A stretch of 64,000 nucleotides of DNA from an uncultured Ignavibacteriales bacterium. GTDB taxonomy: Bacteria > Zixibacteria > MSB-5A5 > GN15 > JAAZOE01. The stretch is taken from contig CAZGAV010000011.1 in the NCBI GenBank assembly GCA_964523575.1, forward strand, positions 2,294 through 66,293, in the 5' to 3' direction. Positions 2,690 through 25,142 of this stretch are shown here, one piece after another. The notes beneath the pieces are model-generated. The model made no database searches and was not told the origin of the DNA. It saw only the letters and a list, made by a program, of their open reading frames with translations. A program made the translations under genes and the position numbers. Positions within the stretch are counted from its first letter, which is position 1, and the number at the start of each line of letters is the position of its first letter.

Positions 2690-4588
2690 CTATATTTTGA
2701 GCTGGACGCCGACTTCCATGACCTGTTCCTGCGGGATACCGTAGAAGGAAGAGGCATCGTAAGAATTACGCGAAAGGAAGGCAAAAAGATGGGCCCGCCA
2801 GAGGCTCACCAGATGATGCTTTTCCCGGACCAGCTTGACCCGCCCCAGGAAAAAGCTCGTATCCTCCAGCGGAAAATCCAGCCCCTGCCCCTGAGCCAGC
2901 GACAGGGCGATAGGAACACTGGGATTTTCCATATAGCCGTAATAGACCGTAATCTTATAGAAGCCACTACCCAGCTTGTCGATTTTCAGTTTTTCCTCAT
3001 TGGGCATGCGCGGCACCTCGACCGGCGCAAAATTGAGAAAGGCGACCTGGGAGTGGATAATTTTATTATGTTGCAGATTGTGTGTCAGGGCCACGGGCAC
3101 GCTGTCGGACTGGCCCGACATGAACACCGCCCGGCCCTTCACCCGTTCGATATCTTCGGCCAGGATGCGGGCCTGAAGCTCCTGAAAAGGTATCGACAAA
3201 TCCTTGAACTGCTCGGCCAGAATCGCCCGCCCCCGCTTCCAGGTCATCATGACCATGAGAACCATGAATCCGATGACCAGCGGAAACCAGGCGCCATGCA
3301 CAATCTTGCTGATATTGGCCGAAAAGAAAGCTATATCGACAATAATGAAGACCACCGCGGGCACACCGGCTGAGAGTGGACTCCATTTCCATCTCTCCCG
3401 GGCCACGACGTAAAAAAGCATGGTCGATATCATCATGGTCGACGTCACGGCCACGCCATAAGCGGCGGCCAGTCTGCTGGAAGATTGAAAACCAAGCACC
3501 AGCGCCAGCACCGCCACCATCATCAGCCAGTTCACCTGAGGAACATAAATCTGGCCGACATGCCGGGAGGACGTATGAATGATTCTCATGCGCGGCAGAT
3601 AACCCATCTGGATCGCCTGAGTCGTGAGAGAAAAGACTCCGGTGATAACCGCCTGCGAGGCGATGATGGTGGCCATCGTGGCCAGAACAACCATCGGGAT
3701 GACCGCCCATTCGGGCACCGTTGCATAAAAGATATGAAAAGCCTGATCGGGATGGGCCAGTAAATAAGCGCCCTGACCGAAATAGTTGATCACCAGGGCC
3801 GGCAACACCAGATAAAACCAGACCAGGCGAATCGGTCGACGGCCGAAATGGCCCATGTCGGCATAAAGCGCCTCGGCGCCGGTGACCACGAGAAAGACCG
3901 CACCCAGCACCAGAAAACCCTCAAGGCTGGCATGCATTAGAAAATTGATGGCGTACCAGGGAAGCAGGGCCCGAAAAATTCCCGGATGCTGTACGATTTG
4001 ATGTATACCCAGAGCCGCCAGAACCGCGAACCAGACCAGAATAACCGGCCCGAACATCTGCCCCACCTTGGCCGTTCCCCGGCTTTGCAGAAGAAACAGC
4101 CCGGCCAGTATCAGAACCGTGACGGGAATAATATATGGCTGAAACTGCGGCGCAATAACCTGCAGTCCTTCGACGGCGCTCATCACCGAAATGGCCGGCG
4201 TGATCATGCCGTCGCCGTAAAGCAGGCAGGCCGCGAAAATACCGACACCGATCAGGATGCGGCGGATTCTTCTCCGCCGGTCGGAACCGGATATAATCAA
4301 AGCCGTCAGGGCAATGACGCCGCCGTCGCCGCGATTATCGGCCCGAAGAATAAAAGTCATGTATTTCAGCGAAACGATAAACAGCAGGGACCAGAACATG
4401 AGCGACAGAACGCCCAGAATGCTATGCTCGGAAACGGGGATGCCATAGTCACCATGGAAACATTCCCGGATGGCATACAGAGGACTGGTGCCGATATCGC
4501 CGAAAACCACTCCCAGCGCCGCCAAGGCCAGAGCCCGGATCTGATTTTTTTTGTCTGCGACCGGAGTTTTAGACTCAGGTACCGCCAT
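2690..4588 (-). CDS. kup: KUP/HAK/KT-family potassium uptake transporter
   Basis: 632 aa. N-terminal KUP signature LGVVFGDIGTSPLYA, a polytopic N-terminal two thirds and a soluble C-terminal domain. Confidence 0.95.
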   Translation of the reverse strand: MAVPESKTPVADKKNQIRALALAALGVVFGDIGTSPLYAIRECFHGDYGIPVSEHSILGVLSLMFWSLLFIVSLKYMTFILRADNRGDGGVIALTALIISGSDRRRRIRRILIGVGIFAACLLYGDGMITPAISVMSAVEGLQVIAPQFQPYIIPVTVLILAGLFLLQSRGTAKVGQMFGPVILVWFAVLAALGIHQIVQHPGIFRALLPWYAINFLMHASLEGFLVLGAVFLVVTGAEALYADMGHFGRRPIRLVWFYLVLPALVINYFGQGAYLLAHPDQAFHIFYATVPEWAVIPMVVLATMATIIASQAVITGVFSLTTQAIQMGYLPRMRIIHTSSRHVGQIYVPQVNWLMMVAVLALVLGFQSSSRLAAAYGVAVTSTMMISTMLFYVVARERWKWSPLSAGVPAVVFIIVDIAFFSANISKIVHGAWFPLVIGFMVLMVMMTWKRGRAILAEQFKDLSIPFQELQARILAEDIERVKGRAVFMSGQSDSVPVALTHNLQHNKIIHSQVAFLNFAPVEVPRMPNEEKLKIDKLGSGFYKITVYYGYMENPSVPIALSLAQGQGLDFPLEDTSFFLGRVKLVREKHHLVSLWRAHLFAFLSRNSYDASSFYGIPQEQVMEVGVQLKI

Positions 4589-10420: not shown

Positions 10421-12634
10421 GTGGCTTCAAAAAAGATCCTGCGGATATTTCCCTTTCTGGGCTGGTTTGAGAAATACACCGTCGATAAACTGCGATCGGA
10501 CCTGATTTCCGGCCTCACCGTCGCTCTGGTGCTGGTGCCGCAGTCGATGGCTTATGCGCAGCTGGCGGGCTTACCGGCTTATTACGGTCTTTACGCCGCT
10601 TTCCTGCCTCCGATGGTGGCCGCCCTGTTCGGGTCCAGCCGCCAACTGGCCACCGGCCCGGTGGCGATCGTCTCCCTGATGACGGCGACGGCTCTGGAAC
10701 CGCTAGCCACGGCCGGCAGTGACATGTACATCGTATACGCCATTCTGCTGGCTTTGCTGGTCGGGCTGTTCCAATTAATGCTGGGCGTCCTCCGGCTGGG
10801 ACTGGTCGTCAATTTCCTTTCGCATCCGGTCGTCAACGGATTCACCAATGCCGCCGCCTTGATTATCGCCACTTCGCAATTATCCAAATTGTTCGGCGTC
10901 AACGTCGACAGCGCCGCCCATCACTATGAAACCGTTTACAATGTCATTAAGGCGGCATTTCAATATACTCACTGGCCGACTCTGGCGCTGGCGGCGCTGG
11001 CCTTTGCCATTATGATAATTTTACGGTACGTAAATCGCCGTATCCCCAACGTCCTGGCGGCGGTGGTCATCACCACCGTGATTTCATGGCTGACCGGTTT
11101 CGAACACAATTACAAGGCCGATCTCAGCCAGATAAAGTCGGAGATTTTTCATAGCCTGGTGCTGGTTTTCGATTCGGCCTGTGAGGGCCTGGCCGACAAA
11201 TCCGAGACCCGGGTGACGCTTCGAGACCAGTACAGCGCCACCGTCGATAATCAGGGACGGGATTCGTTTGATGCCATCCAGCTTTTATATAAATTACACA
11301 TCATCGACAGCGAAATCGAACGCCTCAAGGAGCAGTTGCGCGAATATCGTTCTGAAATGCGAGACTACTTCTTCAAGGCCGCCAATGTCGGCGGCGACAG
11401 TCTTGTTTTTTACGTGGCTGAAGAATTTCCCCCCGGGCTTCAGGCCTCCGGCGATCTATGGCGAATGAAAATCGGCAACAACCCCCTTAATCCCGCCGCG
11501 CTGACGATGACCGGCGGCGGCGCCGTGGTCGGAAATATTCCCAGCGGCCTGCCGTCCCTGAAAATACCGGGCTTTCCGGTTTCCACGGCGGTCGGTTTGA
11601 TTCCGATGGCGATGATTATCTCCCTCCTGGGTTTCATGGAAGCGATCTCCATCGCCAAAGCGATGGCGGCAAAAACCGGCCAGCGTCTCGACCCTAATCA
11701 GGAACTGGTCGGTCAGGGTCTGGCCAATATTGTCGGATCTTTCGGGCAAAGTTACGCCGTTTCCGGCTCGTTTTCGCGTTCGGCCGTCAACCTTCAGGCC
11801 GGCGGGGCCACCGGTTTATCGAGTGTTTTCAGCAGTCTGGTCGTGGCCGCGACTCTGCTGTTTTTCACGCCCCTGCTGTATCATTTGCCGCAATCGGTAC
11901 TGGCCGCTATCATCATGATGGCGGTGGTCGGTTTGCTGAACGTAAAGACTTTCATCCATTCCTGGCGGGCTCAGAAATACGACGGTATCATCGGTATCAT
12001 CAGCTTCCTTTTCACGCTCGCTTTCGCGCCTGATCTCGACCGCGGCATCATCATCGGTATCGGGCTGTCGCTTCTGCTGTATCTTCTGCGCAACATGAAA
12101 CCGGCTATCACGATGCTCTCTCTGCACCCCGACGGCACTTATCGGAGCCGGACTCGCTTCGGTCTTGATCAATGTCGCCATATCGCCGTCATCCGCTACT
12201 CCGGCTCGATTTTCTTCGCCAATGTCAGTTATCTCGAGGATCAGGTGCTGGAAACGGCGCGGTCGATGCCGGAACTGAAACATGTCCTCATCGTCGGCAA
12301 CGGCATCAATGAACTCGACGCCTCCGGCGAGGAAACCCTGGCCAGCCTCGTCGGCCGACTGCACGAGCAGGGCCTTGAGGTCTCCATGAGCGGTATCAAC
12401 GATGCCGTTCTGGACGCCATGAGACGCACGGGACTACTGGCTAAAATCGGCGAGGAAAATATTTACCGCAACGCCACCCGGGCCATCGAAAGTATCTGGG
12501 GGGCGGCCCATGAAAAATCTGATGAAATCGAATGTCCTCTTCGGATCATCCCCCTGAAGCATTTCCCGGTGGCCGATTCGGTCAAGGTCAGCCCGGCTAT
12601 CAGACCCGATCATCCCGATAATCGCCGCCGGTGA
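10421..12634 (+). CDS. SulP-family anion transporter with C-terminal STAS domain and a large internal insertion
   Basis: The N-terminus LRSDLISGLTVALVLVPQSMAYAQLAGLP is typical of SulP/SLC26. There is a STAS-like C-terminus (VIRYSGSIFFANVSYLED...). At 737 aa it appears longer than the SulP proteins I know (about 500-600 aa). Confidence 0.9.
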   Translation: MASKKILRIFPFLGWFEKYTVDKLRSDLISGLTVALVLVPQSMAYAQLAGLPAYYGLYAAFLPPMVAALFGSSRQLATGPVAIVSLMTATALEPLATAGSDMYIVYAILLALLVGLFQLMLGVLRLGLVVNFLSHPVVNGFTNAAALIIATSQLSKLFGVNVDSAAHHYETVYNVIKAAFQYTHWPTLALAALAFAIMIILRYVNRRIPNVLAAVVITTVISWLTGFEHNYKADLSQIKSEIFHSLVLVFDSACEGLADKSETRVTLRDQYSATVDNQGRDSFDAIQLLYKLHIIDSEIERLKEQLREYRSEMRDYFFKAANVGGDSLVFYVAEEFPPGLQASGDLWRMKIGNNPLNPAALTMTGGGAVVGNIPSGLPSLKIPGFPVSTAVGLIPMAMIISLLGFMEAISIAKAMAAKTGQRLDPNQELVGQGLANIVGSFGQSYAVSGSFSRSAVNLQAGGATGLSSVFSSLVVAATLLFFTPLLYHLPQSVLAAIIMMAVVGLLNVKTFIHSWRAQKYDGIIGIISFLFTLAFAPDLDRGIIIGIGLSLLLYLLRNMKPAITMLSLHPDGTYRSRTRFGLDQCRHIAVIRYSGSIFFANVSYLEDQVLETARSMPELKHVLIVGNGINELDASGEETLASLVGRLHEQGLEVSMSGINDAVLDAMRRTGLLAKIGEENIYRNATRAIESIWGAAHEKSDEIECPLRIIPLKHFPVADSVKVSPAIRPDHPDNRRR

Positions 12635-13367: not shown

Positions 13368-14078
13368 TCAACTGGCCACATAGTCTTCCTCAGCCAGAGC
13401 GATAACACGGTTGAGATGATTCATGGCATCCCGAACGGAGGCCTCATCCATCACGATCCCGCCCGCGAGTTTCTGCGAGGTATCGAGAAGGTTCTTGATG
13501 AGGACCTTAGATTCGGGGTCCAGAAGGTGTTGCAACCAGATCTGGGCGTATTCGGCGTTTCGAGTTGCCGCCATCAATTGCCGGCCGGCGTTTAAATAAT
13601 CCTTTTTATCGAAATAATCCCGGGCCAGATCCCGATGATAGCGGGATAGGGCCAGTTGGGTGTGAGCCAGAACCTTGTCAAAATCGTCGGGGGCGATTAG
13701 AAATCCTCGCTGAAGACTGTCGGCCATGCCGACCATTTCCCGCGTCGCCGCCTGAAGATCCATTTTGGCTTCACCCTGAGCCAGGTCCGTCTCCTCGATC
13801 ATTATCTCGACGGCTTTCTGGACGCCGCCTATGGCCGAAACCGTATCATCAGCCCGGTAGGCCTCATGGGCCCGAACCGCGTGGGTCCAGGGATCGAGTT
13901 CATCGTAAACCCACAGGTCTTCGCCGATTATGCTATCGGTGGGCACGACAGTGGTGTCGCTTTCGGCGATGGCCGAAGCCGCCCCGGCCTCATTCTTGGG
14001 CTGGCTGTGACTGCAGGACAGAACCAGCATCGGCGGGGCGATCAGGAAGATAGCCGGGATCAGGAATTTCTTTAACAT
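13368..14078 (-). CDS. Hypothetical lipoprotein
   Basis: Signal peptide with lipobox LVLSC. The remainder is helical and acidic. Downstream of htrA on the same strand. Confidence 0.65.
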   Translation of the reverse strand: MLKKFLIPAIFLIAPPMLVLSCSHSQPKNEAGAASAIAESDTTVVPTDSIIGEDLWVYDELDPWTHAVRAHEAYRADDTVSAIGGVQKAVEIMIEETDLAQGEAKMDLQAATREMVGMADSLQRGFLIAPDDFDKVLAHTQLALSRYHRDLARDYFDKKDYLNAGRQLMAATRNAEYAQIWLQHLLDPESKVLIKNLLDTSQKLAGGIVMDEASVRDAMNHLNRVIALAEEDYVAS

Positions 14079-14146: not shown

Positions 14147-15628
14147 TTACGGCTGAAAGGCCAGAAACAGGCTGTGTCCGTTGCGATAAACGCGAAGCAG
14201 AATCGTGTCACCCTTCTTCATCATGGAAATTTCATTGGTAAATCCATCCACCGAGTCGATTTTTCTTCTGTTGACGGCGGTGATGACGTCGCCTTCGCGC
14301 AAACCGGCGGCGTAGGCGTTACTGCCCTGATCGATATCGGTGACCGCTACGCCCTGGGTATCGTCGGCGAGACCATAATACTTCCGAATGTCGGGAGTTA
14401 TGTCCTTGACCGCGAATCCGAGACCTTCCATCATACTGTTCGGGTTGGCGGCGATCAACTGGTTATCCGAAGCCTCGGCCAGCTTGACCTTGATGTCTTC
14501 CTGCTTGCCATTGCGCATGATACTGAGATCGACGACAGTGCCGGGGCTCGTGGATGCGACCCGGTTGCGTAAATCGGAGGAATTGTTGATATCGAAACCG
14601 TCCATTTTCTGGATGATGTCGCCCGCCTGCACGCCGGCTTTATCGGCCGGGCCATCATGGACGACTTCGCTGACCAGGGCGCCGTTGGTTTTCTTAATAC
14701 CCATGGCGTTCGCGATCGATTCGTTGATATCCTGAATTGCCACGCCCAGCCAGCCGCGGACGACCTTACCCTGCTTGATCAGGGAATTCATGACATGAGT
14801 CGCCATATTGACCGGGATGGCGAAGCCCAGGCCCTGCGAACCGCCGCTCTGACTGACAATCGCGGTATTGATACCGATCAGCCGGCCGTCCATATTCACC
14901 AGCGGACCGCCGGAATTACCGGGGTTGATGGCCGCATCGGTTTGAATAAAATCTTCGTAATCGGCCAGGCCGACATTGGATCGGCCGGTGGCGCTGATGA
15001 TGCCCTGGGTAACGGTATAAGCCAGATTTTCACTCATGGGACTGCCGATGGCCAGAACCAGTTCGCCGACGTTCAGGCTGTCGCTGTTGCCCATGGATAT
15101 GCTGGGATAATCGTCGCCGTCTATTTTAAGCACGGCAATGTCGGTTTTGGTGTCGGCGCCGACTACTTTGACGGGATGCTTGTTGCCGTCGAAAGTCCGA
15201 ACATAAATACTGTCGGCGCCGTCAATCACATGAGCGTTGGTCAATATATATCCATCACTGCTGGTAATAACTCCGCTCCCCAGCCCGTATTGATGAAATT
15301 GGCGTTGCTGCGGCTGTTGCTGTTGACCGCCATGCGGATTTTGAAAAAAGTCAAAAATTGACCCGAAATCGTAGGCGTTGGCGGGCATAGTCAATGTTTT
15401 TTCCGTGGAAACCGTGACAACGGTTGGTTTGATAGCCGCTGCAATATCTATCAGGGCCTGATTGAAATCATGCAAATTGGCGATAGGTCTGTTTTCAGCC
15501 GGGACCACGTGCGTGGGGCGGGCCACTGCGGCCAACTCAATGACAAGAAAGAGACTCAGAGCGACTCCGATACCTAAAACCAAATATCTTATGCGGTGCG
15601 AATTGCCGGAATTTTTTTTCGTCTTCAT
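14147..15628 (-). CDS. htrA: HtrA/DegP-family periplasmic serine endoprotease with two PDZ domains
   Basis: Catalytic motifs TNAHV and GNSGGPL, an N-terminal membrane anchor, and two PDZ-like segments. 493 aa. Confidence 0.95.
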   Translation of the reverse strand: MKTKKNSGNSHRIRYLVLGIGVALSLFLVIELAAVARPTHVVPAENRPIANLHDFNQALIDIAAAIKPTVVTVSTEKTLTMPANAYDFGSIFDFFQNPHGGQQQQPQQRQFHQYGLGSGVITSSDGYILTNAHVIDGADSIYVRTFDGNKHPVKVVGADTKTDIAVLKIDGDDYPSISMGNSDSLNVGELVLAIGSPMSENLAYTVTQGIISATGRSNVGLADYEDFIQTDAAINPGNSGGPLVNMDGRLIGINTAIVSQSGGSQGLGFAIPVNMATHVMNSLIKQGKVVRGWLGVAIQDINESIANAMGIKKTNGALVSEVVHDGPADKAGVQAGDIIQKMDGFDINNSSDLRNRVASTSPGTVVDLSIMRNGKQEDIKVKLAEASDNQLIAANPNSMMEGLGFAVKDITPDIRKYYGLADDTQGVAVTDIDQGSNAYAAGLREGDVITAVNRRKIDSVDGFTNEISMMKKGDTILLRVYRNGHSLFLAFQP

Positions 15629-15733: not shown

Positions 15734-15749
15734 TGCAATGTCCGTGCCA
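15734..15749 (-). promoter_or_regulatory. Sigma-54 (-24/-12) promoter upstream of htrA
   Basis: The minus strand reads TGGCACGGACATTGCA, an exact match to TGGCACG-N4-TTGCW. It lies about 105 nt upstream of the htrA start codon, in a 239-nt intergenic gap. Confidence 0.7.
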
Positions 15750-15867
15750 AGATTGAATCGCATGATAATCAACCACTTATGAGATGCGTCTCGGTGGCAT
15801 TTCGCCTCAACGGGGCATCTTGCCACACCCGATGTAAACGATTGAATGAAGATCAAAAAGGGAAGTT

Positions 15868-17190
15868 TTAGGCTTCGGTATCGCGAGGCCGGATAGTATG
15901 CGAGACTCGAATTTCCCGCCGGGTAATAAGCCGGTAGAGGCCTTCAATCAGGAACGAGAGTGCGATCATGGCCACCAGCACCCAGATGCGGACCGGCTGT
16001 GTCGTCATTGTATGCCAGATAAGAGCCGCCAGGGCCAGACCGCAGGCGAGTGCACCGGCGATCGAGATCCAGGGGCGGCTCCCGGTCTGGCGATGAAGAT
16101 GAAAGTTGGCCAGATTGACGGCCGCAAAAATTATCAGGAATCCGGCGCTTCCCATCATCGAAATACTCGACAGGTCGAACACATTGGCTACTATAAGGGT
16201 AATGCCGGCCGTTATTAACAAACCTTCGGCCGGGCGATTCCAGACTTTTTTCTCGAGGATGGGCGGCAGTTCCCCATCACGGGCGATGGTATAGCTGAGG
16301 CGCGCCGCGCCATACAGAGTGGCATTGATAGCCGAAGCCGTCGAAAGCAGAGCGGCAACGGCGATAAGAATAAAACCAAATTCGCCCATAAAAGGCCGGG
16401 CCGCTTCGGCCAGGGCGTAATCCTGAGCCTTGACGATCTGAGGGACGGACAGATTGCCTACCGCCACCCCGGCGACCAAAACATAGAGAATGATGACAAA
16501 AATGACGGCCGAGAAATAGGCTTTGGGCAAAGTCCGCTTCGGTCGCTCGACGTCATGCGCTGTGTTGGCGATCAATTCAAACCCTTCATAAGCCAGAAAA
16601 ATAATCATCCCCCCGGCGACCAGGTTCAAAGGCGGTGACCAGGCGGCGGGCGCCAGACGGCCCCATTCGATCGTCACGAAGCCCAGACCGGCAAAGAGCA
16701 GGAGAATCGACAGCTTGACCGCGACGATCAGGAGTTCGGCGCGGCCGATGGCCTGCGTATTGAGCATATTTAATCCGGTAATGGCGACGATACTGAAACT
16801 GATCAGCAGATGACGAAAAAGAGGTTGCAGATGAGCCGGAAACAGGGCCGCACCATAACTTCCGAAGGCGAAAGAATACAGGGACAACATGACGATGTAA
16901 GAAAGCCAGAGGAGAATATTGAGTCCGCCGGTGAACAACCCGGCCCCGAAGGCTCGATCAAGAAAGGTGACTGTCCCTCCCTGACTGGGGAAGGCGATGG
17001 ACATTTTGGTGTAGGAGTATGCGGTCAGAAGAGCCACCAGTCCGGCCACCAGAAAAGCGACTGGAGAACCTCCGCGGGCGACCAGAACCGCCATCCCGAG
17101 AACCGCGAAAATTCCCCCGCCAACCATGCCGCCGACACCGATGGCTGCTGTCTCCCAGTAACCCAGTTTTTTTCCGGCGGCATTCTTCAT
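15868..17190 (-). CDS. APC-superfamily amino acid/polyamine permease
   Basis: 440 aa with about 12 TM segments. N-terminal Gly-rich motif AIGVGGMVGGGIFAVLG. Confidence 0.9.
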   Translation of the reverse strand: MKNAAGKKLGYWETAAIGVGGMVGGGIFAVLGMAVLVARGGSPVAFLVAGLVALLTAYSYTKMSIAFPSQGGTVTFLDRAFGAGLFTGGLNILLWLSYIVMLSLYSFAFGSYGAALFPAHLQPLFRHLLISFSIVAITGLNMLNTQAIGRAELLIVAVKLSILLLFAGLGFVTIEWGRLAPAAWSPPLNLVAGGMIIFLAYEGFELIANTAHDVERPKRTLPKAYFSAVIFVIILYVLVAGVAVGNLSVPQIVKAQDYALAEAARPFMGEFGFILIAVAALLSTASAINATLYGAARLSYTIARDGELPPILEKKVWNRPAEGLLITAGITLIVANVFDLSSISMMGSAGFLIIFAAVNLANFHLHRQTGSRPWISIAGALACGLALAALIWHTMTTQPVRIWVLVAMIALSFLIEGLYRLITRREIRVSHTIRPRDTEA

Positions 17191-17251: not shown

Positions 17252-18097
17252 TTAGCCCGCTTTGCGTCTTACGTTCATTTCCGCCGCTTCAAGATATTTC
17301 TTTATCTTGCCTTCCGCAATGTCGAAAAGAAGTGTCAGATCAGTCTTGAGACCGGCGGATGGGGCGTCATCATGGTTGTCGCTGGTTATCACGAAGACTT
17401 TTCCCGGCAGCGTCAGTATCAGGCGTGAATAATAGAGCTCGGATCCGTCGGTCGTAATATGGTTCTCGATTATCACCCGGCAGAAGATGATCTTCTGGTT
17501 GAGCCGGGTAAGCTTCTCGGCCTCTTTGAATATATGTTCTTCGATATACATCAATCGCGGACTGTTGCGGAAAATAACATCGAGCGGAAAACCATGTCTC
17601 TGGGAAATAACCTTGGCTGTAGCCTTTTTCGCGGCTTTGGCAGAGACGTTGCTTTCCAGAATCTGGGCCACGATTTCCTGAAAGACATCGAGATCGAACG
17701 GTTTGTCCAGCATCGCCGCCACTCCCAGACTTTCCGCCTCGGCATGGGTTTTGGCGTCGCCGAAAGCGGTTATGAGCATTATGGGCGGGAAACCGCTGTT
17801 ATCATGGACAAAATCAAGTATCTCCATTCCGGTAAAACCGGGCATACGAATATCGGAAACAATAAGATCGAAACTTGCCGATTGCTCTTCATCAGTAAAA
17901 GACCCGAAGTGCTGTAATAATTCCACGCCGTTGGTGCATTCTTCGACTCGATATCCTTCTTTCGCCAGGACACGAATCAATAGCGATCTCATTTCATCAT
18001 CATCCTCAGCCAGAAGAATGGCGTATGGCTTTTCTTTTCTGCTCCGGCGCGCGGCCGAGCCATAATCGCGATTCTGCTGAGATTTCGAAGTGGCCAT
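17252..18097 (-). CDS. Response-regulator receiver fused to an HPF/RaiA-like (ribosome hibernation factor fold) domain
   Basis: REC motifs: LLAEDDDE, LIVSDIRMPGFTGME, LITAFGD, LDKP. The C-terminal ~110 aa follow the HPF/YfiA beta-alpha-beta-beta-beta-alpha pattern (LDVIFRN..IEEHIFKEAEKLTRL..IIFCRVIIEN..YYSRLILTLPGKVFVITSDN..LLFDIAEGKIKKYLE). Confidence 0.75.
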   Translation of the reverse strand: MATSKSQQNRDYGSAARRSRKEKPYAILLAEDDDEMRSLLIRVLAKEGYRVEECTNGVELLQHFGSFTDEEQSASFDLIVSDIRMPGFTGMEILDFVHDNSGFPPIMLITAFGDAKTHAEAESLGVAAMLDKPFDLDVFQEIVAQILESNVSAKAAKKATAKVISQRHGFPLDVIFRNSPRLMYIEEHIFKEAEKLTRLNQKIIFCRVIIENHITTDGSELYYSRLILTLPGKVFVITSDNHDDAPSAGLKTDLTLLFDIAEGKIKKYLEAAEMNVRRKAG

Positions 18098-18152: not shown

Positions 18153-18168
18153 AGCAAATAATGTGCCC
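18153..18168 (-). promoter_or_regulatory. Sigma-54 (-24/-12) promoter upstream of the REC-HPF gene
   Basis: The minus strand reads GGGCACATTATTTGCT with correct GG-N10-GC spacing. It lies about 55 nt upstream of the start codon at 18097. Confidence 0.65.
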
Positions 18169-18316: not shown

Positions 18317-19687
18317 TCATGAAGCCGGTTTATCTTCGTCGTATTGTTGTAATTTCCGATAGAGGGTTTTGCGGTCGAGGCCGAGGATTCGTGAAGCCAG
18401 AGAACGATTGCCGCCAACGGTATCGAGAACATGGAGAATATAGCGGCGTTCGATCTCTTCCAGAGGAATCAGGTCGGCCGGATTTTCACTGTCGAAAGCC
18501 ATCCGCGAGCCGCGAAAATCATGCACTTTTTCGGGCAAATCTTCAGACGCGATATTATCATAAAGAGTCAGGGCCACGGCCCGTTCGATGGCATTTCGCA
18601 ATTCCCGGACATTTCCCGGCCAGGGATAATCGATCAGTTTCTGGGCGGCCGGTTGTGATATACCGACCACTTTTTTGCCCATCCGCTTGGCGAATTGACG
18701 GACGAAACGTCCGGCGATGAGCAGGATATCGTTGCCGCGGGCCCGCAGGGGCGGGACATCGAGCCGGATGACATTGATGCGGTAATAAAGATCTTCTCTG
18801 AAACGGCCTTCGGTTATGGCCGTTTCGAGGTCCTGATTCGTGGCCGTCAGAAGTCGCACATTGAAATCTGTTTCCGTTTTGCCGCCCACCGGTCGAATAC
18901 GGCGTTCCTCCAAGGCCCGCAACAGCTTGGGTTGCAGGGTCAGGGGAAAATCGCCGATTTCATCGAGCAGGAGCGTTCCCCCTTCGGCTTGTTGAAACAA
19001 ACCCTGGCGATCTTCCCGGGCATCGGTGAAGGCGCCGCGCTTGTGCCCGAATAATTCGCTTTCGAGCAGGTTTTCGGGGAGAGCCGAGCAGTTGATGGCG
19101 ACGAAAGGCTTGTTTTGGCGGCGGCTACGGTTATGCAGAGCCCGCGCCATCAATTCCTTGCCGGTGCCGCTTTCGCCTATGATCAGGACCGAGGTTTCGG
19201 TGTCGGCGATGCGGCTCAACTGCGAAAACAAGTTTATCATCGGTTTGCTTTCGCCGATAATTTCGTCAAACTGCTGTGATTCCTCAAGAGCCTCGCTGAG
19301 AAGATGGACCTTCTGCTGGAGTTCCCGGTGCCGTACGGCCCGTTCGATGGAGAGCGAAAGCAGATCGAGATCGATCGGTTTGGTGACAAAATCATAAGCC
19401 CCGGCCCGAATCGCCGCGATGGCCGAATCCATACTGCCGAAAGCGGTGATGACTATGACGGGAATATCGGGCCGATTGGCGTTGATCCTTTTGCATAATT
19501 CAATGCCGTCGATACCGGGCAGATTTAAATCGGTCAGAACGACGTCGATATCGTCATCCTTCATGCCGGCCAGAGCCTGATGCGGATCGGTGAAGGTGGC
19601 CGGCGTGAAACCCCGGCGGCGAAAATCGCTTTCCAGCAGTTTGCACATCTCATGGTCGTCATCGACGATTATTATTTTTCCGCTCAT
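18317..19687 (-). CDS. Sigma-54-dependent NtrC-family response regulator (REC + AAA+ + Fis-type HTH)
   Basis: REC: IIVDDDHE, VLTDLNLPGIDG. AAA+: Walker A GESGTGKE, sigma-54 contact loop GAFTDA (a GAFTGA variant), LLLDEIGD. The C-terminal HTH is GGNRSLASRILGLDRKTLYRKL. Confidence 0.95.
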   Translation of the reverse strand: MSGKIIIVDDDHEMCKLLESDFRRRGFTPATFTDPHQALAGMKDDDIDVVLTDLNLPGIDGIELCKRINANRPDIPVIVITAFGSMDSAIAAIRAGAYDFVTKPIDLDLLSLSIERAVRHRELQQKVHLLSEALEESQQFDEIIGESKPMINLFSQLSRIADTETSVLIIGESGTGKELMARALHNRSRRQNKPFVAINCSALPENLLESELFGHKRGAFTDAREDRQGLFQQAEGGTLLLDEIGDFPLTLQPKLLRALEERRIRPVGGKTETDFNVRLLTATNQDLETAITEGRFREDLYYRINVIRLDVPPLRARGNDILLIAGRFVRQFAKRMGKKVVGISQPAAQKLIDYPWPGNVRELRNAIERAVALTLYDNIASEDLPEKVHDFRGSRMAFDSENPADLIPLEEIERRYILHVLDTVGGNRSLASRILGLDRKTLYRKLQQYDEDKPAS

Positions 19688-21162
19688 CCTCTCTCCTCGG
19701 CCGGCAGGTAAATCGTAAATCGAGTGCCTTTACCCACCGTGCTTTCGACGGCAATCCATCCCTTGTGTTCCTCGATTATTCCGTAGGCGATTGACAGTCC
19801 CAGCCCGGTCCCCTGTCCGACATCCTTGGTCGAAAAGAAGGGATCGAAAATGAGGTTCAGATTTTCGGGAGCTATGCCCTCGCCCTGATCGGTAATATCG
19901 ATGGCCAGATAATCGCGCTCGGCGGCATCGGCGTGGGCCAGATTTTTGCGGCGATCGGGATACAATTTTATCTCAACGGTTCCGCCCCGGGGCATGGCCT
20001 GGATGGCGTTCATGACGAAATTCATCAGAACCTGCTGAATCTGCGATTGATCGACCGATACTCCCGGAGATTCGCCCTCTTCCACCAATTTCAATGTGAC
20101 CCTGGCCTTACCGGCCATCGGCCGCAGAAGATCCAGAACCTGACTGCACAACTGGCGCATGATCGTTGACATCCGGTGCGTCTGCCGCCGTCGCGCGAAA
20201 TCGAGCAATTGCCGGATAATCCTGATAATCCTCTCAGTCTGCTCGACAATGATGCGCGAATAGTCGCCGATCTCCTCCGAATCCAGTTTCTCGGTGCTCA
20301 ACAGCTTGGCCCGACCGGTAATAACATTCAAGGGAGTACCCAGTTCATGAGCGACGCCGGAGGCCAGCCGGCCGACCGTGGCCAGGCGCTCGGTGTGCCG
20401 CAATTGCTCCATGGTCGACAGCCGTTTTTCGACTTCGGCCCGCAGTTTCTCGCGGGAAAGCTGCAGCTGGGCGCACATCTGATTTAAAGCCCCGGCCAGC
20501 TGCGATAATTCGTGGTGGCCGGAAAGTGTCAGGTCGCAAGAGAAGTTTCCCTGCCCGATCCGCCGGGTTTTTTCCACCAGTTGTTTCAACGGCTGGCCGA
20601 CATATCGGTTACCGAGAATCCATAAAAAACCCAGACCCAAGAGGATCAGGACGACCGACAGAATGACGACCCGGATGGCCGTTTCCCTGGTATAATGCCG
20701 CAGACTGCCCATCGGTTCTTCCAGTTCAATGGCGCCCAGCTTCATATCTTTTGCATTGACCGGGACATAGGTGCGCATGAACTGGCGACCGTACTCATCG
20801 ACATAATGCAACGAAGTATCCCGGCCCTGTTCCACGGGGAGAAGATATTCGGGCCGGACATCGGGCGGCAAAGTCGGTTCGCTCACGCTGCTGGGATAAA
20901 TCCAGCGAATGCGGATACTGTTTTCGGCGCGGTTGATTTCATGAATTCGCCGCAACGCCCGTTCGGGATTATTCTGGAACATCGCCTCGGATACCATGCC
21001 TCCGGCCAATTGACCCAGCTGGACGGCTGTGGATTGCATATTATTGTGGAAAAGATCTATTTCGCGCCGCACCGATAAATAACCGTCGATGACGATCGTA
21101 AGCAGAATAATCGGAAATAATACAATCAGTAATTTTAGCGTCAGTCGCATAGGCCTGTCCAA
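19684..21162 (-). CDS. Membrane sensor histidine kinase (periplasmic domain + HAMP + HisKA + HATPase)
   Basis: Two TM segments flank a ~150-aa loop, followed by a HAMP-like linker. H-box SGVAHELGTPLNVI; DQGEGI and GTGLGLSIA boxes. There is a 4-nt overlap with the activator gene. Confidence 0.9.
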   Translation of the reverse strand: MDRPMRLTLKLLIVLFPIILLTIVIDGYLSVRREIDLFHNNMQSTAVQLGQLAGGMVSEAMFQNNPERALRRIHEINRAENSIRIRWIYPSSVSEPTLPPDVRPEYLLPVEQGRDTSLHYVDEYGRQFMRTYVPVNAKDMKLGAIELEEPMGSLRHYTRETAIRVVILSVVLILLGLGFLWILGNRYVGQPLKQLVEKTRRIGQGNFSCDLTLSGHHELSQLAGALNQMCAQLQLSREKLRAEVEKRLSTMEQLRHTERLATVGRLASGVAHELGTPLNVITGRAKLLSTEKLDSEEIGDYSRIIVEQTERIIRIIRQLLDFARRRQTHRMSTIMRQLCSQVLDLLRPMAGKARVTLKLVEEGESPGVSVDQSQIQQVLMNFVMNAIQAMPRGGTVEIKLYPDRRKNLAHADAAERDYLAIDITDQGEGIAPENLNLIFDPFFSTKDVGQGTGLGLSIAYGIIEEHKGWIAVESTVGKGTRFTIYLPAEERG

Positions 21163-21212
21163 TTTATCCTAATAGAATACTCAATATTGCGGCGGAAAAC
21201 TCCAAAGTCAAG

Positions 21213-23735
21213 TTAATGCGCACGCTTCGCCTGCCTGATTGCGCGTTCGCGGCGCTTCTGGTGCATGTGTTTGAGCAGGCCCGGTTCCCGCGATCCGAAA
21301 ATCTTAAAGGCCAGTAACTTGGAACCATCTTCGATTATAAAACCGGCCAATGCATAAGCCCACACGACTCCGGCCCAGCCCCAGCCGATGGGAGCCATCA
21401 GGAAGCCATACACGGAAATCAGGGTCGCTACCATTTGGGTCAATATAACTGCGGCCAAAAGCGGCGTGCCCGGTCGCGAGGACCAGAAGGGCCGCTCGGT
21501 TCGGGTGACAAAAATTGTCAGATGGCCGGCCACCGAAAGCTTGAGATACATGAAAGTCTGAAGCATATCACGGCTCAAGTTGAAAACCCTCTCACCCAGA
21601 AAGAAAAGGCCGAAAGATTCGATCACGCCAATCACGCCCAGAACAGTGGCAATCGGCAAAAGGATATGCATATCCCAGGCATCGGGACCCAGCGATTCCG
21701 TAACGCGGTCATAGGCAATGGACAGTATCGCGCCGTCGTTGAGCAGGGCCAGAAGAACAATCATAACGGCCGTAACCGGATAAAAATTGAAGGCCAGAAT
21801 CGACAGCGTCATGAACAGCAGGACCCGGATAGTTTCGGCTATTCGATAGGTGGCGTAAGCCTGCATCCTTTTGAATATTTTCCGGCTTTCGTGAATGGCC
21901 GAAATAATAACCGACAGACCCTTGGTCAGGAGAACGATGTCGGAGGCCGAACGGGCCGCATCGGTAGCGTCGGAAACGGCGATGCCGACGTCGGCTTTTT
22001 TCAGCGCCGGAGCGTCGTTGACGCCATCGCCGGTCATACCGACGATATGGTCCCGCTTTTGAAGGGCGGCTACAATATTGTATTTATGCTCGGGGAAAAC
22101 CTGGGCGAAACCATCGGCTTCTTCGATCTGGACCGGGGAAAAATCAAATGTGGCCTGATCCTCGCCGTCGGCGGAAATTTGCAGAATATTGGTGCCCAGG
22201 CCGAGTTGACGGGCTGTCTCTCGGGCGATGGCCTCCTGGTCGCCGGTGATCATTTTCACCGTGACGCCCATTTGCCGCGCCTGTTCAATGGTCGCTTTCG
22301 AATCCTCGCGCGGCGGATCATACAGAGGCAAAATCCCCAGAAACTGCCAACGGCCTTTTTTATCGGTTCGGGCCACGCCCAGCGAGCGATAGCCGCGTTG
22401 AGCGAAAGATTCGATCTCCTGCAGAGTATCTTTTTCGATATCGGCTGAATTTACCGACATTTTCAAAATGACCTGCGGCGCCCCTTTGGACACGCGGAAA
22501 GCCCGGCCGTCTTTTGGTTCAACCGCGGCTTCGGTTTTTTTATGCACCGGATCGAAGGGGATGAATTCGGTGACTTTGTAGTCTTTCAGCAGGTCTTTAT
22601 CTTCCAACCCTTCCACGACGGCGACGTCGATCGGGTCATTATCTTCTTCTCGTGAAGCCAATGCCGCCGCCAGAAAAATATCGCCGGCCGTGACCCCTTT
22701 AACGGTGAACGGTTCGGCGGCTTTTAATGAATTCTGGGTGAGGGTGCCGGTTTTATCGCTGCATAATATATCCACTCCGGCCAGTTCTTCTATTGAGGCC
22801 AGCCGGGAAACGATAGCTTTCTTGGCCGCCAGCAATCTGGCCCCGGCTGCCATAGTGACCGACAAGACCGTCGGCATGGCGATAGGAATCGCCGCCACCA
22901 GAAGCACTAACGCAAACTGCATGGTGGTGGCCAGGCGGTCGCCGCGGAAGATGGAGACGGTGAGGATAATAATAACGAGAAAGACCGCCAGGACAATGAG
23001 ATAGTCGCCGATTTTAAGCACCGCCCGCTGAAGGTGGCTCAGCCCGCCGTCTTCCTTGACCAATTGGGCCGTTTTACCGAAATAGGTCGCATCCCCGATG
23101 GCGCCGACCACAGCCCGGGCTTCGCCGCGCTTGACATTGGAACCGGAATAGACTTTCTCCTTCTTGTGACGCGACACCGGCAATGATTCTCCGGTGAGGG
23201 CCGCCTGATCGACCTGAATTTCGTCGTCGTCAATCAGAACAGCATCGGCCGGTATGATATCGCCGGACCGTAAACGGATCAAATCCCCCGGCACCAGGTC
23301 CCGAACGGGAATAATTTTCCATTCTCCGCCTCTTCTGACCCGAGCTTTGATCGCCAGAGTCTCCTTGAGAGCGGCGATAGTGTTGTCGGCCTGGTATTCC
23401 TCCCAAAAACCGATACAGGCGTTAATCAGGAGCATGGCTACGATAATACCGAAATCGCTCCAATGGCGGACGATAATCGAAAGCACCGCCGCGGCCTCGA
23501 TCATCCACGGAATCGGTCCCCAGAAATAACTCAGGAATTTCAGGATCGGATGCGTTTTATGCTCGACCAGTTCATTATAACCGTACTGCTCGTGCCCTGC
23601 CCTCACTTCGCTGTCGCTCAATCCCGCTTCGTTGAACTGAGGGATAACGGCGGCCTCGGAGTCATTATGGGATCGAGGGGCGTCATTATCCGATTGGGAC
23701 GCCGCCGGATGATCAGTCACTGCCTTTCCACTCAT
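21213..23735 (-). CDS. P-type ATPase, type IIIA (plasma-membrane H+-ATPase-like)
   Basis: P-type motifs TGES, DKTGTLT, MITGDQ and GDGVNDAPALKKADVGIAV. The N-terminus (YGYNELVEHKTHPILKFLSYFWGPIPWMIEAAAV) and the TM6 region (LLALLNDGAILSIAYDRV) resemble plant/fungal proton pumps. Confidence 0.9.
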   Translation of the reverse strand: MSGKAVTDHPAASQSDNDAPRSHNDSEAAVIPQFNEAGLSDSEVRAGHEQYGYNELVEHKTHPILKFLSYFWGPIPWMIEAAAVLSIIVRHWSDFGIIVAMLLINACIGFWEEYQADNTIAALKETLAIKARVRRGGEWKIIPVRDLVPGDLIRLRSGDIIPADAVLIDDDEIQVDQAALTGESLPVSRHKKEKVYSGSNVKRGEARAVVGAIGDATYFGKTAQLVKEDGGLSHLQRAVLKIGDYLIVLAVFLVIIILTVSIFRGDRLATTMQFALVLLVAAIPIAMPTVLSVTMAAGARLLAAKKAIVSRLASIEELAGVDILCSDKTGTLTQNSLKAAEPFTVKGVTAGDIFLAAALASREEDNDPIDVAVVEGLEDKDLLKDYKVTEFIPFDPVHKKTEAAVEPKDGRAFRVSKGAPQVILKMSVNSADIEKDTLQEIESFAQRGYRSLGVARTDKKGRWQFLGILPLYDPPREDSKATIEQARQMGVTVKMITGDQEAIARETARQLGLGTNILQISADGEDQATFDFSPVQIEEADGFAQVFPEHKYNIVAALQKRDHIVGMTGDGVNDAPALKKADVGIAVSDATDAARSASDIVLLTKGLSVIISAIHESRKIFKRMQAYATYRIAETIRVLLFMTLSILAFNFYPVTAVMIVLLALLNDGAILSIAYDRVTESLGPDAWDMHILLPIATVLGVIGVIESFGLFFLGERVFNLSRDMLQTFMYLKLSVAGHLTIFVTRTERPFWSSRPGTPLLAAVILTQMVATLISVYGFLMAPIGWGWAGVVWAYALAGFIIEDGSKLLAFKIFGSREPGLLKHMHQKRRERAIRQAKRAH

Positions 23736-23749
23736 ACTCGTCTCACAAC

Positions 23750-24295
23750 CTATTCTTCAACGGTTTCCGCGGGTACCTTTTTAATGGTTTTCAACGCTTC
23801 CCGCGCCAGAACGGCGACATGCTCCCATGGTCCCAAAGTGCGAATATCGTCCAGAACTTCAAGCACCGGCTGGCGCAAATGACGCTGGCGCTCGAGGTCA
23901 TGGAGTACATGATGAGCGCCGTTGCGCAACGATTCCGATTCCGGTCTTTCAACCAGCCCCCGAAGCAGAGGTTCGATGGCGGCCTTATTCAGGGCTATCA
24001 GGGCCTCGGCGGCCAGCCATTGAATTTCATAATCTTCATCGCTCAGGGCCTCGACGAGGTTATCACCGGTTTCGGGATCCTTGATGGTAATTAGGGCTTT
24101 GGCCGCTTCCCAACGGGCGTCATCGCCACCTTCTTTGAGTATTTTGATCAACCAGGGACTGGCTTCCCGGCCCAATTTTTCAAACTCCATTCGAGCTTCG
24201 TGCCGCACCATCCAATTTCGGTCGCTCAGGTTGTCTGCCAATCTCTTCAGTGTGGCCGGTGTCGGTTTACTTTTATCTTCGGTTTGAGCTGTCAT
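23750..24295 (-). CDS. HEAT-repeat protein
   Basis: Repeated D..W.VR..AA.AL-type HEAT/PBS-lyase repeats (NWMVRHEARMEF, DARWEAAKALI, EIQWLAAEALI). It ends 14 nt upstream of the ATPase gene. Confidence 0.8.
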   Translation of the reverse strand: MTAQTEDKSKPTPATLKRLADNLSDRNWMVRHEARMEFEKLGREASPWLIKILKEGGDDARWEAAKALITIKDPETGDNLVEALSDEDYEIQWLAAEALIALNKAAIEPLLRGLVERPESESLRNGAHHVLHDLERQRHLRQPVLEVLDDIRTLGPWEHVAVLAREALKTIKKVPAETVEE

Positions 24296-24352: not shown

Positions 24353-24368
24353 AGCAAAGCCCTTGCCA
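24353..24368 (-). promoter_or_regulatory. Sigma-54 (-24/-12) promoter upstream of the HEAT/H+-ATPase/kinase/activator operon
   Basis: The minus strand reads TGGCAAGGGCTTTGCT with correct GG-N10-GC spacing. It lies about 57 nt upstream of the start codon at 24295. Confidence 0.6.
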
Positions 24369-24648
24369 AAGAACACGGAAGTCGTCCGATGGGCCTTATC
24401 GCCATCGAGACAACAGGTTATCCGAATCCGGGAGGTCACAATGACAATTCGCGGCAATCTCGGAATGGGGCATAATGCCACAATGGGTAATGATGCTACA
24501 TCTATTACCCTACTTTCGAAGCCTGCCAGTTTTCAGGAATATGGCCCGCTGACAACTTCGGCTGCGGTAGTCTTTCTCAATATATACGGACTCAAATCGA
24601 GACCCGGCTCGCACGGTCCTGTGCCGGTCACAACGGTTTCGATAGTTC

Positions 24649-24664
24649 CGGCACGAAAATTGCA
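24649..24664 (+). promoter_or_regulatory. Sigma-54 (-24/-12) promoter upstream of the small secreted protein gene
   Basis: The plus strand reads CGGCACGAAAATTGCA. It lies about 37 nt upstream of the ATG at 24702 and is divergent from the promoter at 24353-24368. Confidence 0.65.
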
Positions 24665-24701: not shown

Positions 24702-25142
24702 ATGTTAAAGAAAATTGCGATTCTTTTGGGTATGGCGGCCATGATCGCCTGGCCGGGGAGTCATGCCATGGCCCAGCCCAAAACCGAATCCAATGGCGCC
24801 ATGAGCGCTCTAATCGCCTCCACCTCGCCCGATTCTATCCGTAGTCTGGACACGAAAGACGTCATCGACGCTCTGCTGATCGACGGGACCAAAATGGAAG
24901 CTTCTTATGATTCACTGCAGACCAATTTCGAAAGCCTGACAAAAATAAAGGACGATGAGGCTCGCCGGACGGAAACGGCTATTTATAAAACAGAGATGCA
25001 AACCCTGCGGGATAAACTCTCGGAAGAGATGGATGAATTGCGATTCCTGAGATCGATGTCCCAATCGGAAACGGCCGCGTCTGCCGGGGAAGTACGGGCT
25101 CAGCCGGCCAAGGTTACCAAGGGAGACGCCACCGGCCACTGA
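24702..25142 (+). CDS. Small secreted hypothetical protein (146 aa)
   Basis: The internal ATG is preceded by GGAAGGAG and followed by a signal peptide (MLKKIAILLGMAAMIAWPGSHAMAQ). The longer track ORF (from 24363) would run through the sigma-54 promoter. The mature part is helical and charged. Confidence 0.65.
   Translation: MLKKIAILLGMAAMIAWPGSHAMAQPKTESNGAMSALIASTSPDSIRSLDTKDVIDALLIDGTKMEASYDSLQTNFESLTKIKDDEARRTETAIYKTEMQTLRDKLSEEMDELRFLRSMSQSETAASAGEVRAQPAKVTKGDATGH

Follow-up and report, generated by a model that had tools for sequence, protein, structure and literature searches.

A 64,000-nucleotide stretch of the genome of an uncultured bacterium of the phylum Zixibacteria (assembly GCA_964523575.1, contig CAZGAV010000011.1, positions 2,294 to 66,293; hereafter the window) encodes a P-type ATPase of 840 amino acids (aa) beside a small HEAT-repeat protein, and sequence comparisons indicate that the two genes form a conserved unit. 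The ATPase is a true member of the P3A branch, that of the AHA2/PMA1-type pumps, with a complete Asn/Arg/Asp proton site, and its partner is a predicted solenoid of about 180 aa that belongs to a distinct HEAT family. In the lineage of the window, this two-gene unit appears to be wired into a sigma-54 regulon driven by a sensor kinase and an activator encoded in the same operon. The operon and its control region comprise the following features.

23750-24295, minus strand: HEAT-repeat protein, 181 aa, a predicted cytoplasmic alpha-solenoid with a PF13646/HEAT_2 domain
21213-23735, minus strand: P3A-type P-type ATPase, 840 aa (Pfam E1-E2_ATPase, Hydrolase and Cation_ATPase_N)
19684-21162, minus strand: sensor histidine kinase, 492 aa counted from a TTG start (Pfam HAMP, HisKA and HATPase_c)
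18317-19687, minus strand: NtrC/ZraR-type sigma-54 activator, 456 aa (Pfam Response_reg, Sigma54_activat and HTH_8)
24353-24368, minus strand: sigma-54 promoter TGGCAAGGGCTTTGCT of the HEAT-pump operon, 57 nucleotides (nt) before the HEAT ATG
24464-24499, no strand assigned: candidate enhancer, or upstream activating sequence (UAS), made up of the palindrome GGGGCATAATGCCAC (at 24467) and a degenerate second copy 18 nt off

The open reading frames bear out the gene order described in a first-pass annotation made from the letters of the window: HEAT gene, ATPase, kinase and activator, with gaps of 14 nt (HEAT/ATPase) and 50 nt (ATPase to the TTG of the kinase), a 4-nt overlap between kinase and activator, and a sigma-54 promoter ahead of the whole, for which relatives have equivalents. 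The span given there for the system, 19684-24295, holds the HEAT, ATPase and kinase genes and leaves the activator outside. Because all six kinase orthologues start where the window has an ATG at 21150, four codons past the listed TTG, this ATG is most likely the true start, which would make the ATPase-kinase gap 62 nt. A weak sigma-70-like site inside the 50-nt gap could be a source of basal expression. Rfam models detected no riboswitch or structured leader, the mgtA Mg leader included, between positions 12000 and 26000.

P3A proton pumps energize the plasma membranes of plants and fungi, and in AHA2 the proton is moved by Asn106, Arg655 and Asp684. The ATPase of the window matches the NCBIfam model TIGR01647 at 1042.1 bits (cut-off, 615.5); the next-best P-type models are those of P3B Mg pumps (362 bits, far under the cut-off of that model) and PMR1-type Ca pumps (342 bits). 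Its closest relatives of solved structure are AHA2 (659.5 bits) and the PMA1 pumps of Neurospora and yeast (640 and 629 bits), with MgtA at 275 bits, and the AHA2 match is one alignment that joins pump residues 37-800 to AHA2 chain positions 20-821. In this alignment N105, R637 and D667 of the pump fall on Asn106 in transmembrane helix (TM) 2, Arg655 in TM5 and Asp684 in TM6; they are kept in 67, 62 and 67, respectively, of 67 aligned prokaryotic relatives, and E. coli MgtA has S, G and D at these positions. The TM5 arginine has been used to separate proton pumps from P3B pumps (PMC10654040). The catalytic motifs TGES, DKTGT, TGDQ and GDGVNDAP and the TM4 motif PIAMP are all present, residues T181, D327 (of DKTGT), P284, T497 and G569 are each kept in 66 or 67 of the 67 relatives, and hydropathy is compatible with 10 TM helices (peaks for TM1-7 and TM9-10, with TM8 weaker). 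In a tree restricted to prokaryotic pumps, eukaryotic references having been compared by hidden Markov model and PDB searches, the protein lies among prokaryotic P3A pumps, and E. coli MgtA forms an outgroup branch of about four changes per site. A P3B (Mg) identity was rejected on the model scores, the scores of the structural relatives and the proton-site residues. The first-pass annotation had reached the same family from canonical P-type motifs and two quoted peptides, all of which are present in the protein, and had set it apart from Kdp, Cu and Ca pumps; the phylogenetic placement that it proposed as a check agrees with its assignment.

Bacterial P3A genes are already annotated as such, and the pump itself is of a known type; it is the only P3A gene in the genome of the window. 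It shares with AHA2 and PMA1 the NCBIfam equivalog, an end-to-end alignment, the catalytic motifs, the TM4 PIAMP and the Asn/Arg/Asp residues, and differs from them in having a C-terminal tail of 40 residues after TM10 and a separate HEAT gene alongside; that it transports as they do is predicted from this likeness. Tails measure 15-64 residues in the prokaryotic relatives. The autoinhibitory R domain of eukaryotic pumps (about 100 aa in plants), or a fungal equivalent, is absent from the pump and from all prokaryotic relatives compared, and because the R domain is missing we expect no 14-3-3 site. Prokaryotic P3A pumps of Methanocaldococcus jannaschii and Methanosarcina, two archaea that were the only control genomes above the TIGR01647 cut-off, belong to the same family; the archaeal P3A loci examined have no HEAT neighbor, in contrast to the conserved partner gene and the predicted dedicated sigma-54 control of the window pump. 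Among the related loci, which we denote by L numbers, two pumps (L121:12934-15537 and L133:3607-6219) have a 64-aa C-terminal tail with the motif ERAYELYEQRG...DGRA..DWRQAEREIR, which is missing from other pumps, and in both loci the HEAT gene lies 4-12 kb from the pump.

The HEAT protein matches PF13646 at 87.8 bits (cut-off, 27.7), and its AlphaFold2 model (mean predicted local distance difference test score, 92.4) is a nine-helix solenoid whose nearest folds are artificial alphaRep binder scaffolds and the CpcE/F lyase. As modeled, it looks like a scaffold for binding other proteins, without an apparent enzyme site, and we take it to be cytoplasmic because no hydrophobic segment was found in it. 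The family is marked by the motifs RWEAAKAL, DxSFEIxWLAAEALI and GAHHVLxxLER, by invariant residues D86, W93 and H128 and by a nearly invariant H129. In a survey of all 285 species genomes available for the phylum of the window, its members separate cleanly from generic HEAT proteins (at least 136 bits versus at most 68). The repeat type (PBS-HEAT-like) and fold are those of CpcE/CpcF and alphaRep; the motifs RWEAAKAL, WLAAEALI and GAHHVL are the protein's own, and the lyase scores lie far below the cut-offs. A phycobilin-lyase identity was accordingly rejected (the CpcE/CpcF lyase models give 29.4 bits against a cut-off of 330 and 23.6 against 220).

The HEAT family and P3A pumps occur together far more often than expected by chance. 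In the phylum survey, 18 of the 285 genomes have the HEAT family, 21 have a P3A pump and 15 have both (Fisher p = 1.2e-17). Twelve of the 20 HEAT copies lie directly beside a pump on the same strand and two more lie 4 and 12 kb from one, and P3A-like pumps of a second group, with lower scores (704-940 bits), are in no case next to a HEAT gene. The pair is kept beyond the phylum as well: the HEAT gene is immediately downstream of the pump in all eight Bacteroidota loci (Prolixibacteraceae, including Maribellus mangrovi, and Roseivirgaceae) and in one Calditrichia locus. Among metagenome contigs that were reached through HEAT homologs, it precedes the pump in L077, L080 and L084, and it stands beside the pump in L137 and L140, which were reached through pump homologs. 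Both gene orders thus occur among relatives. The co-occurrence and synteny check that the first-pass annotation had suggested supports the pairing, with a pump in 15 of the 18 HEAT genomes and synteny within the phylum and outside it. The HEAT and pump frames overlap by 4-11 nt in L077, L084, L137 and L052, as is typical where the translation of partner genes is coupled. Trees of the HEAT proteins and of the pumps have their main clades in common, namely a Bacteroidota clade, a clade from the regulon loci described below and a third clade in which the correspondence persists even when the genes lie several kb apart (4-12 kb). In the cultured M. mangrovi the pair is an isolated two-gene unit among unrelated flanking genes; Maribellus and Draconibacterium are cultured Bacteroidota that carry it. 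In a metagenome-assembled genome of Calditrichia (L074:7587-8962) the pump is fragmented, with only a 770-nt piece open, and a diverged HEAT gene still follows it.

The two-component genes are conserved along with the pair in at least eight loci. The kinase has a TM helix, a periplasmic domain of about 130 aa, a second TM helix, and HAMP, HisKA and HATPase_c domains; its periplasmic sensor domain matches no recognizable Pfam family and displays no telling conserved residues among orthologs. Kinase orthologs (37-55% identity) are linked to the HEAT gene in L077, L079, L084, L119, L122, L126 and L137, and the same loci encode activator orthologs (570-661 bits). L079 is the one kinase/activator/HEAT locus that lacks the pump and has Nramp in its place; the L124 contig contains the activator gene and breaks off before any kinase. 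The order of these genes is shuffled between relatives as follows.

L119: permease and receiver-domain gene on the opposite strand; then kinase, activator, HEAT, pump, small protein, HtrA, lipoprotein
L122: receiver-domain gene on the opposite strand; then kinase, activator, HEAT, pump, HtrA, permease
L126: the set of L122 minus the permease, all in one direction: kinase, activator, HEAT, pump, HtrA, receiver-domain gene
L077 and L084: kinase, activator, (heme oxygenase), HEAT, pump; the heme oxygenase gene lies in the HEAT-pump operon of L077
L137 (pump 69% identical): the order of the window itself: HEAT, pump, kinase, activator, receiver-domain gene

The genes that recur around the kinase, activator, HEAT gene and pump in these loci have counterparts on both sides of the operon in the window.

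24649-24664, plus strand: sigma-54 promoter-like site CGGCACGAAAATTGCA of the small secreted protein, 37 nt before the ATG at 24702
24702-25142, plus strand: small secreted (periplasmic) protein, 146 aa, with a signal peptide, divergent from the pump operon
18153-18168, minus strand: sigma-54 promoter GGGCACATTATTTGCT of the receiver-domain gene
17252-18097, minus strand: receiver-domain protein, 281 aa, with a Response_reg domain
15868-17190, minus strand: APC-family amino-acid permease, 440 aa (AA_permease_2; only a generic NCBIfam model)
15794-15826, no strand assigned: tandem pair of UAS-like palindromes, GTGGCATTTCGCCTC and GGGGCATCTTGCCAC, spaced by 18 nt and preceding the htrA promoter by 44 and 62 nt
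15734-15749, minus strand: consensus sigma-54 promoter TGGCACGGACATTGCA of htrA, with zero mismatches, 105 nt before the ATG
14147-15628, minus strand: HtrA/DegP (Do-family) periplasmic serine protease with two PDZ domains (TIGR02037 and Pfam)
13368-14078, minus strand: lipoprotein-like protein, 236 aa, with a lipobox-type N-terminus

Sigma-54 promoters precede the HEAT gene in L119, L124, L122, L126, L084 and L137. A single sigma-54 match is not above chance in the window (20 matches versus 22.6 expected), and we take the HEAT promoter to be real because of its position and its conservation in relatives. The palindrome GGGGCATAATGCCAC precedes the HEAT promoter by 98 nt and the divergent promoter by 167 nt. 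The corresponding element, GTGGC-N5-GCCAC with at most one mismatch, is found upstream of the HEAT sigma-54 promoter in L119, L124, L126, L084 and L122; in L077 it stands just after the activator gene, heading the heme oxygenase-HEAT-pump operon, where our scan detected no sigma-54 site. The chance of such a palindrome is about 0.005 per 160-nt region at this mismatch limit, and its presence upstream in at least five of seven independent loci has a binomial p of about 5e-11. It also occurs between the divergent receiver-domain and kinase genes of L122 and L084. The receiver-domain promoter of the window has only a two-mismatch palindrome, GAGGCAATTCGCCCC, about 60 nt upstream; sigma-54 promoters precede the orthologous gene in L077, L084, L122 and L079, and L137 has a divergent promoter placed like that of the small secreted protein in the window. 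Because the palindrome is found repeatedly upstream of these sigma-54 promoters, in the window and in relatives, we predict that the activator binds GTGGC-N5-GCCAC, which precedes the HEAT-pump, htrA and small-protein promoters by 44-170 nt. The conserved linkage and this enhancer-like palindrome support the earlier suggestion that the pump appears to be co-expressed with its own sensory system.

The further members of the regulon are conserved to differing degrees. The receiver-domain gene is kept in L077, L079, L084, L119, L122, L126 and L137. HtrA, which scores 492 bits on TIGR02037 (cut-off, 416), comes after the pump in L119, L122, L124, L126 and L128 and precedes the HEAT gene in L079. 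Permease orthologs are found in L119 and L122, and an APC permease lies between HEAT and pump in L141. The lipoprotein-like protein matches no Pfam or NCBIfam family and has a homolog after htrA in L119 and L124. The small secreted protein likewise has no Pfam or NCBIfam match and none to the ZraP/Spy family; it has weak homologs in the same regulon in L137, L077 and L119 and a paralog on another contig of its own genome, C5. These proteins have the common core FDxLxxxFxxMMxIKD, and most copies are Met-rich, the one in the window being the least so of its family. On C5 (C5:25500-29214, outside the window), a sigma-54 promoter, TGGAACGCTTTTTGCT, with a palindrome, GTGGCATATTGCCTC, 85 nt upstream precedes the paralog, a very Met-rich secreted protein of 161 aa, which is followed by a copper-type P1B ATPase of 884 aa that has a Cys-rich metal-binding motif at its N-terminus. 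This site may also be controlled by the same activator, or by a paralog of it; as a palindrome-promoter match it is within chance expectation.

The layout of the regulon resembles that of ZraPSR of E. coli and Salmonella, an envelope-stress system in which divergent sigma-54 promoters serve a small periplasmic protein and an operon with a two-component system (PMC4987338). Both systems combine a membrane kinase that has a periplasmic sensor with a sigma-54 activator composed of receiver, AAA+ and HTH_8 domains, and the divergent promoters at 24649-24664 (plus strand) and 24353-24368 (minus strand), arranged likewise in L137, repeat the ZraPSR plan. The proteins of the window are not orthologs of those of ZraPSR, however (ZraS model, 166 bits against a cut-off of 479; ZraR model, 404 against 760); the AtoS and AtoC models outscore ZraS and ZraR on the kinase and activator and are also below cut-off. 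The regulon differs further in adding a P3A pump, a HEAT protein, HtrA and a receiver-domain protein. By analogy, it looks like a ZraPSR-like envelope or ion-stress program.

Taking these observations together, we think it probable, with some reservation, that the locus encodes a proton-pump module induced by stress. On sensing an envelope or ion stress in the periplasm, the kinase would phosphorylate the activator. The activator would then switch on the pump, which would expel protons at the cost of ATP and restore membrane potential and cytoplasmic pH, and it would also switch on HtrA and the periplasmic protein, which would clear damaged envelope proteins, as well as the gene of the receiver-domain protein. 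Because the kinase and the activator lie in the pump operon, the activator would raise its own production, making the system self-amplifying. The HEAT protein would most likely bind the cytoplasmic domains of the pump or its short basic tail and act in trans as a regulatory or stabilizing subunit, taking the role that the R domain, with 14-3-3, has in plants. Both the physical binding of HEAT protein to pump and the export of protons by the pump are inferred.

Several P-type ATPases have dedicated partners: beta and FXYD for the Na,K-ATPase, Cdc50 for P4 pumps, KdpA/C/F, and 14-3-3 for AHA2. The HEAT protein would be like these in being a dedicated protein that is encoded or expressed with the pump and controls it. 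It would differ from them in being small and soluble, as predicted from its sequence, whereas the partners named here are all membrane proteins except 14-3-3, and 14-3-3 requires the R domain. In the literature that we searched we found no description of a small soluble HEAT solenoid as a partner of a P-type ATPase. One might go further and propose that the HEAT protein is an obligate, stoichiometric soluble subunit of one bacterial P3A branch, the counterpart in trans of the plant R domain with 14-3-3, that gates the pump according to cytoplasmic conditions, perhaps by using the near-invariant His-His of GAHHVL as a pH sensor, and that its paralogs do likewise for NhaP-type antiporters and Nramp. 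We lean against this stronger proposal while considering it possible; if true, proton-linked cation transporters would have a regulatory subunit of a new class.

A number of findings weigh against a dedicated HEAT-pump partnership within a sigma-54 regulon. No HEAT-pump fusion occurs among the 120 closest pump homologs, whereas a search of 1.84 billion representative proteins with a profile of the HEAT alignment gave no information on fusions, its best 150 matches all being giant multi-repeat HEAT proteins. Comparison of HEAT-associated pumps with other pumps revealed no N- or C-terminal feature specific to the former. Many close pump homologs, in Chloroflexia, Planctomycetota, Mangrovitalea and Desulfomonilaceae, have no HEAT neighbor, and HEAT paralogs beside other membrane proteins indicate that the family is not exclusive to the pump: they are found directly after an NhaP-type Na+/H+ exchanger in L121 (G035) and L123 (G140), before Nramp inside the kinase/activator/HtrA cluster of L079, and divergent from cytochrome bd subunit I in L117, L120 and L125, with further copies by cytochrome b in L127 and by glycogen genes in L133 and L135. 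NhaP, Nramp and cytochrome bd are all proton-linked membrane proteins, and HEAT paralogs beside them suggest a wider link with proton-coupled membrane proteins instead of exclusive service to the pump. Taken with the pumps that lack a HEAT neighbor and the absence of fusions, the various neighbors would fit a HEAT protein that is no pump subunit but a general cytoplasmic adaptor or stress protein for several proton-coupled transporters, or one that acts independently and is merely co-regulated. We judge this unlikely, given that a pump is the immediate neighbor of 12 of the phylum's 20 HEAT copies, that the pair survives inversions of gene order and spans phyla, that it stands alone in Maribellus and its genes often overlap, and that HEAT subfamilies track pump subclades even at separations of 4-12 kb. 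The regulon has difficulties of its own. Across the genome we count six pairs of palindrome and sigma-54 promoter, four of them in this regulon, versus three to eight in shuffled sequence, and because this count is not above that of shuffled sequence we make no regulon-wide claim. In the pump tree, moreover, the window pump groups with that of L008 and with pumps from other phyla, outside the clade of the regulon pumps (L119, L122, L124, L126, L077 and L084), although its HEAT protein groups with the regulon HEAT proteins and its kinase and activator are orthologs of theirs; this may reflect replacement of the pump gene in situ or poor resolution of its long branch in the tree. L008, identical to L118 (G101:C125), is labeled 'uncultured Ignavibacteriales bacterium' at NCBI, and the taxonomy from a genome search puts it in the same order as the window genome; the public label is probably imprecise.

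The pump might instead carry a cation other than H+, with the regulon being chiefly a response to metal stress, such as copper, and the enzyme serving metal or Mg/K homeostasis. The transport function of prokaryotic P3A pumps is undetermined (PMC10654040), and the Met-rich periplasmic proteins found in most relatives, together with the possible Cu-type ATPase target on C5, whose promoter and palindrome are similar, hint at a metal and not a proton signal. Nramp takes the place of the pump in L079, heme oxygenase is encoded in the L077 operon, and ZraSR, the closest characterized two-component system, is metal-responsive. We nevertheless regard this alternative as quite unlikely: the proton site is intact and near-invariant, including the TM5 arginine missing in Mg pumps (PMC10654040), the Mg-pump model scores well below its cut-off, the periplasmic protein of the window is the one with the fewest signs of Met enrichment in its family, and the C5 match does not exceed chance. 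Pump, HEAT gene and two-component system might also lie together by chance, as a neutral outcome without functional connection; this would be in keeping with the shuffled order of the genes and with the placement of the window pump in another clade than the other regulon pumps. It is very improbable in light of the co-occurrence (p about 1e-17), the linkage kept through rearrangements and the conservation of promoters and palindrome in relatives that are not near-clonal (protein identities of 37-71%). We therefore retain the stress-inducible proton-pump module as the best explanation of the locus.

At least 8000 proteins in a public metagenome and protein database match the pump at E <= 1e-100, and from this number we conclude that bacterial P3A pumps are far commoner than one would expect from a review that places them 'mainly in methanogenic Archaea'. 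Their hosts include Alphaproteobacteria, Desulfomonilaceae, Syntrophorhabdaceae, Mangrovitalea and many other bacterial lineages. The first-pass annotation had described P3A pumps as sporadic in bacteria, which holds for the phylum of the window, where only 21 of the 285 genomes have one, and does not extend to public metagenomes. One branch of these numerous pumps has a conserved partner gene, and in one lineage the HEAT-pump pair is part of a defined sigma-54 stress regulon for which an operator is predicted; in the literature that we searched we found neither the conserved HEAT partner nor a ZraPSR-like sigma-54 regulon with a defined operator described. With a partner gene, a regulon with a predicted operator and cultured carriers in hand, the role and regulation of bacterial P3A pumps become directly testable, and the locus provides a first lead, open to testing, on the use and control of these little-studied pumps. 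Should the HEAT protein prove to be a subunit, it would represent a new mode of P-type ATPase control.

The window also contains a KUP/HAK-type K+ transporter gene at 2690-4588, which the first-pass annotation had connected with the pump. The gene is real; the proposed link to the pump was rejected, KUP being present in none of the pump loci of relatives that we examined. Other neighbors do recur, and across several phyla. P3A and HEAT genes are found repeatedly beside genes for phosphoglucomutase, glycogen phosphorylase, and phosphoketolase with acetate kinase (L080, L133, L135, L138, L140 and L121), and also near ClC channels (L080 and L139). These neighbors suit a pump fed by fermentative ATP.

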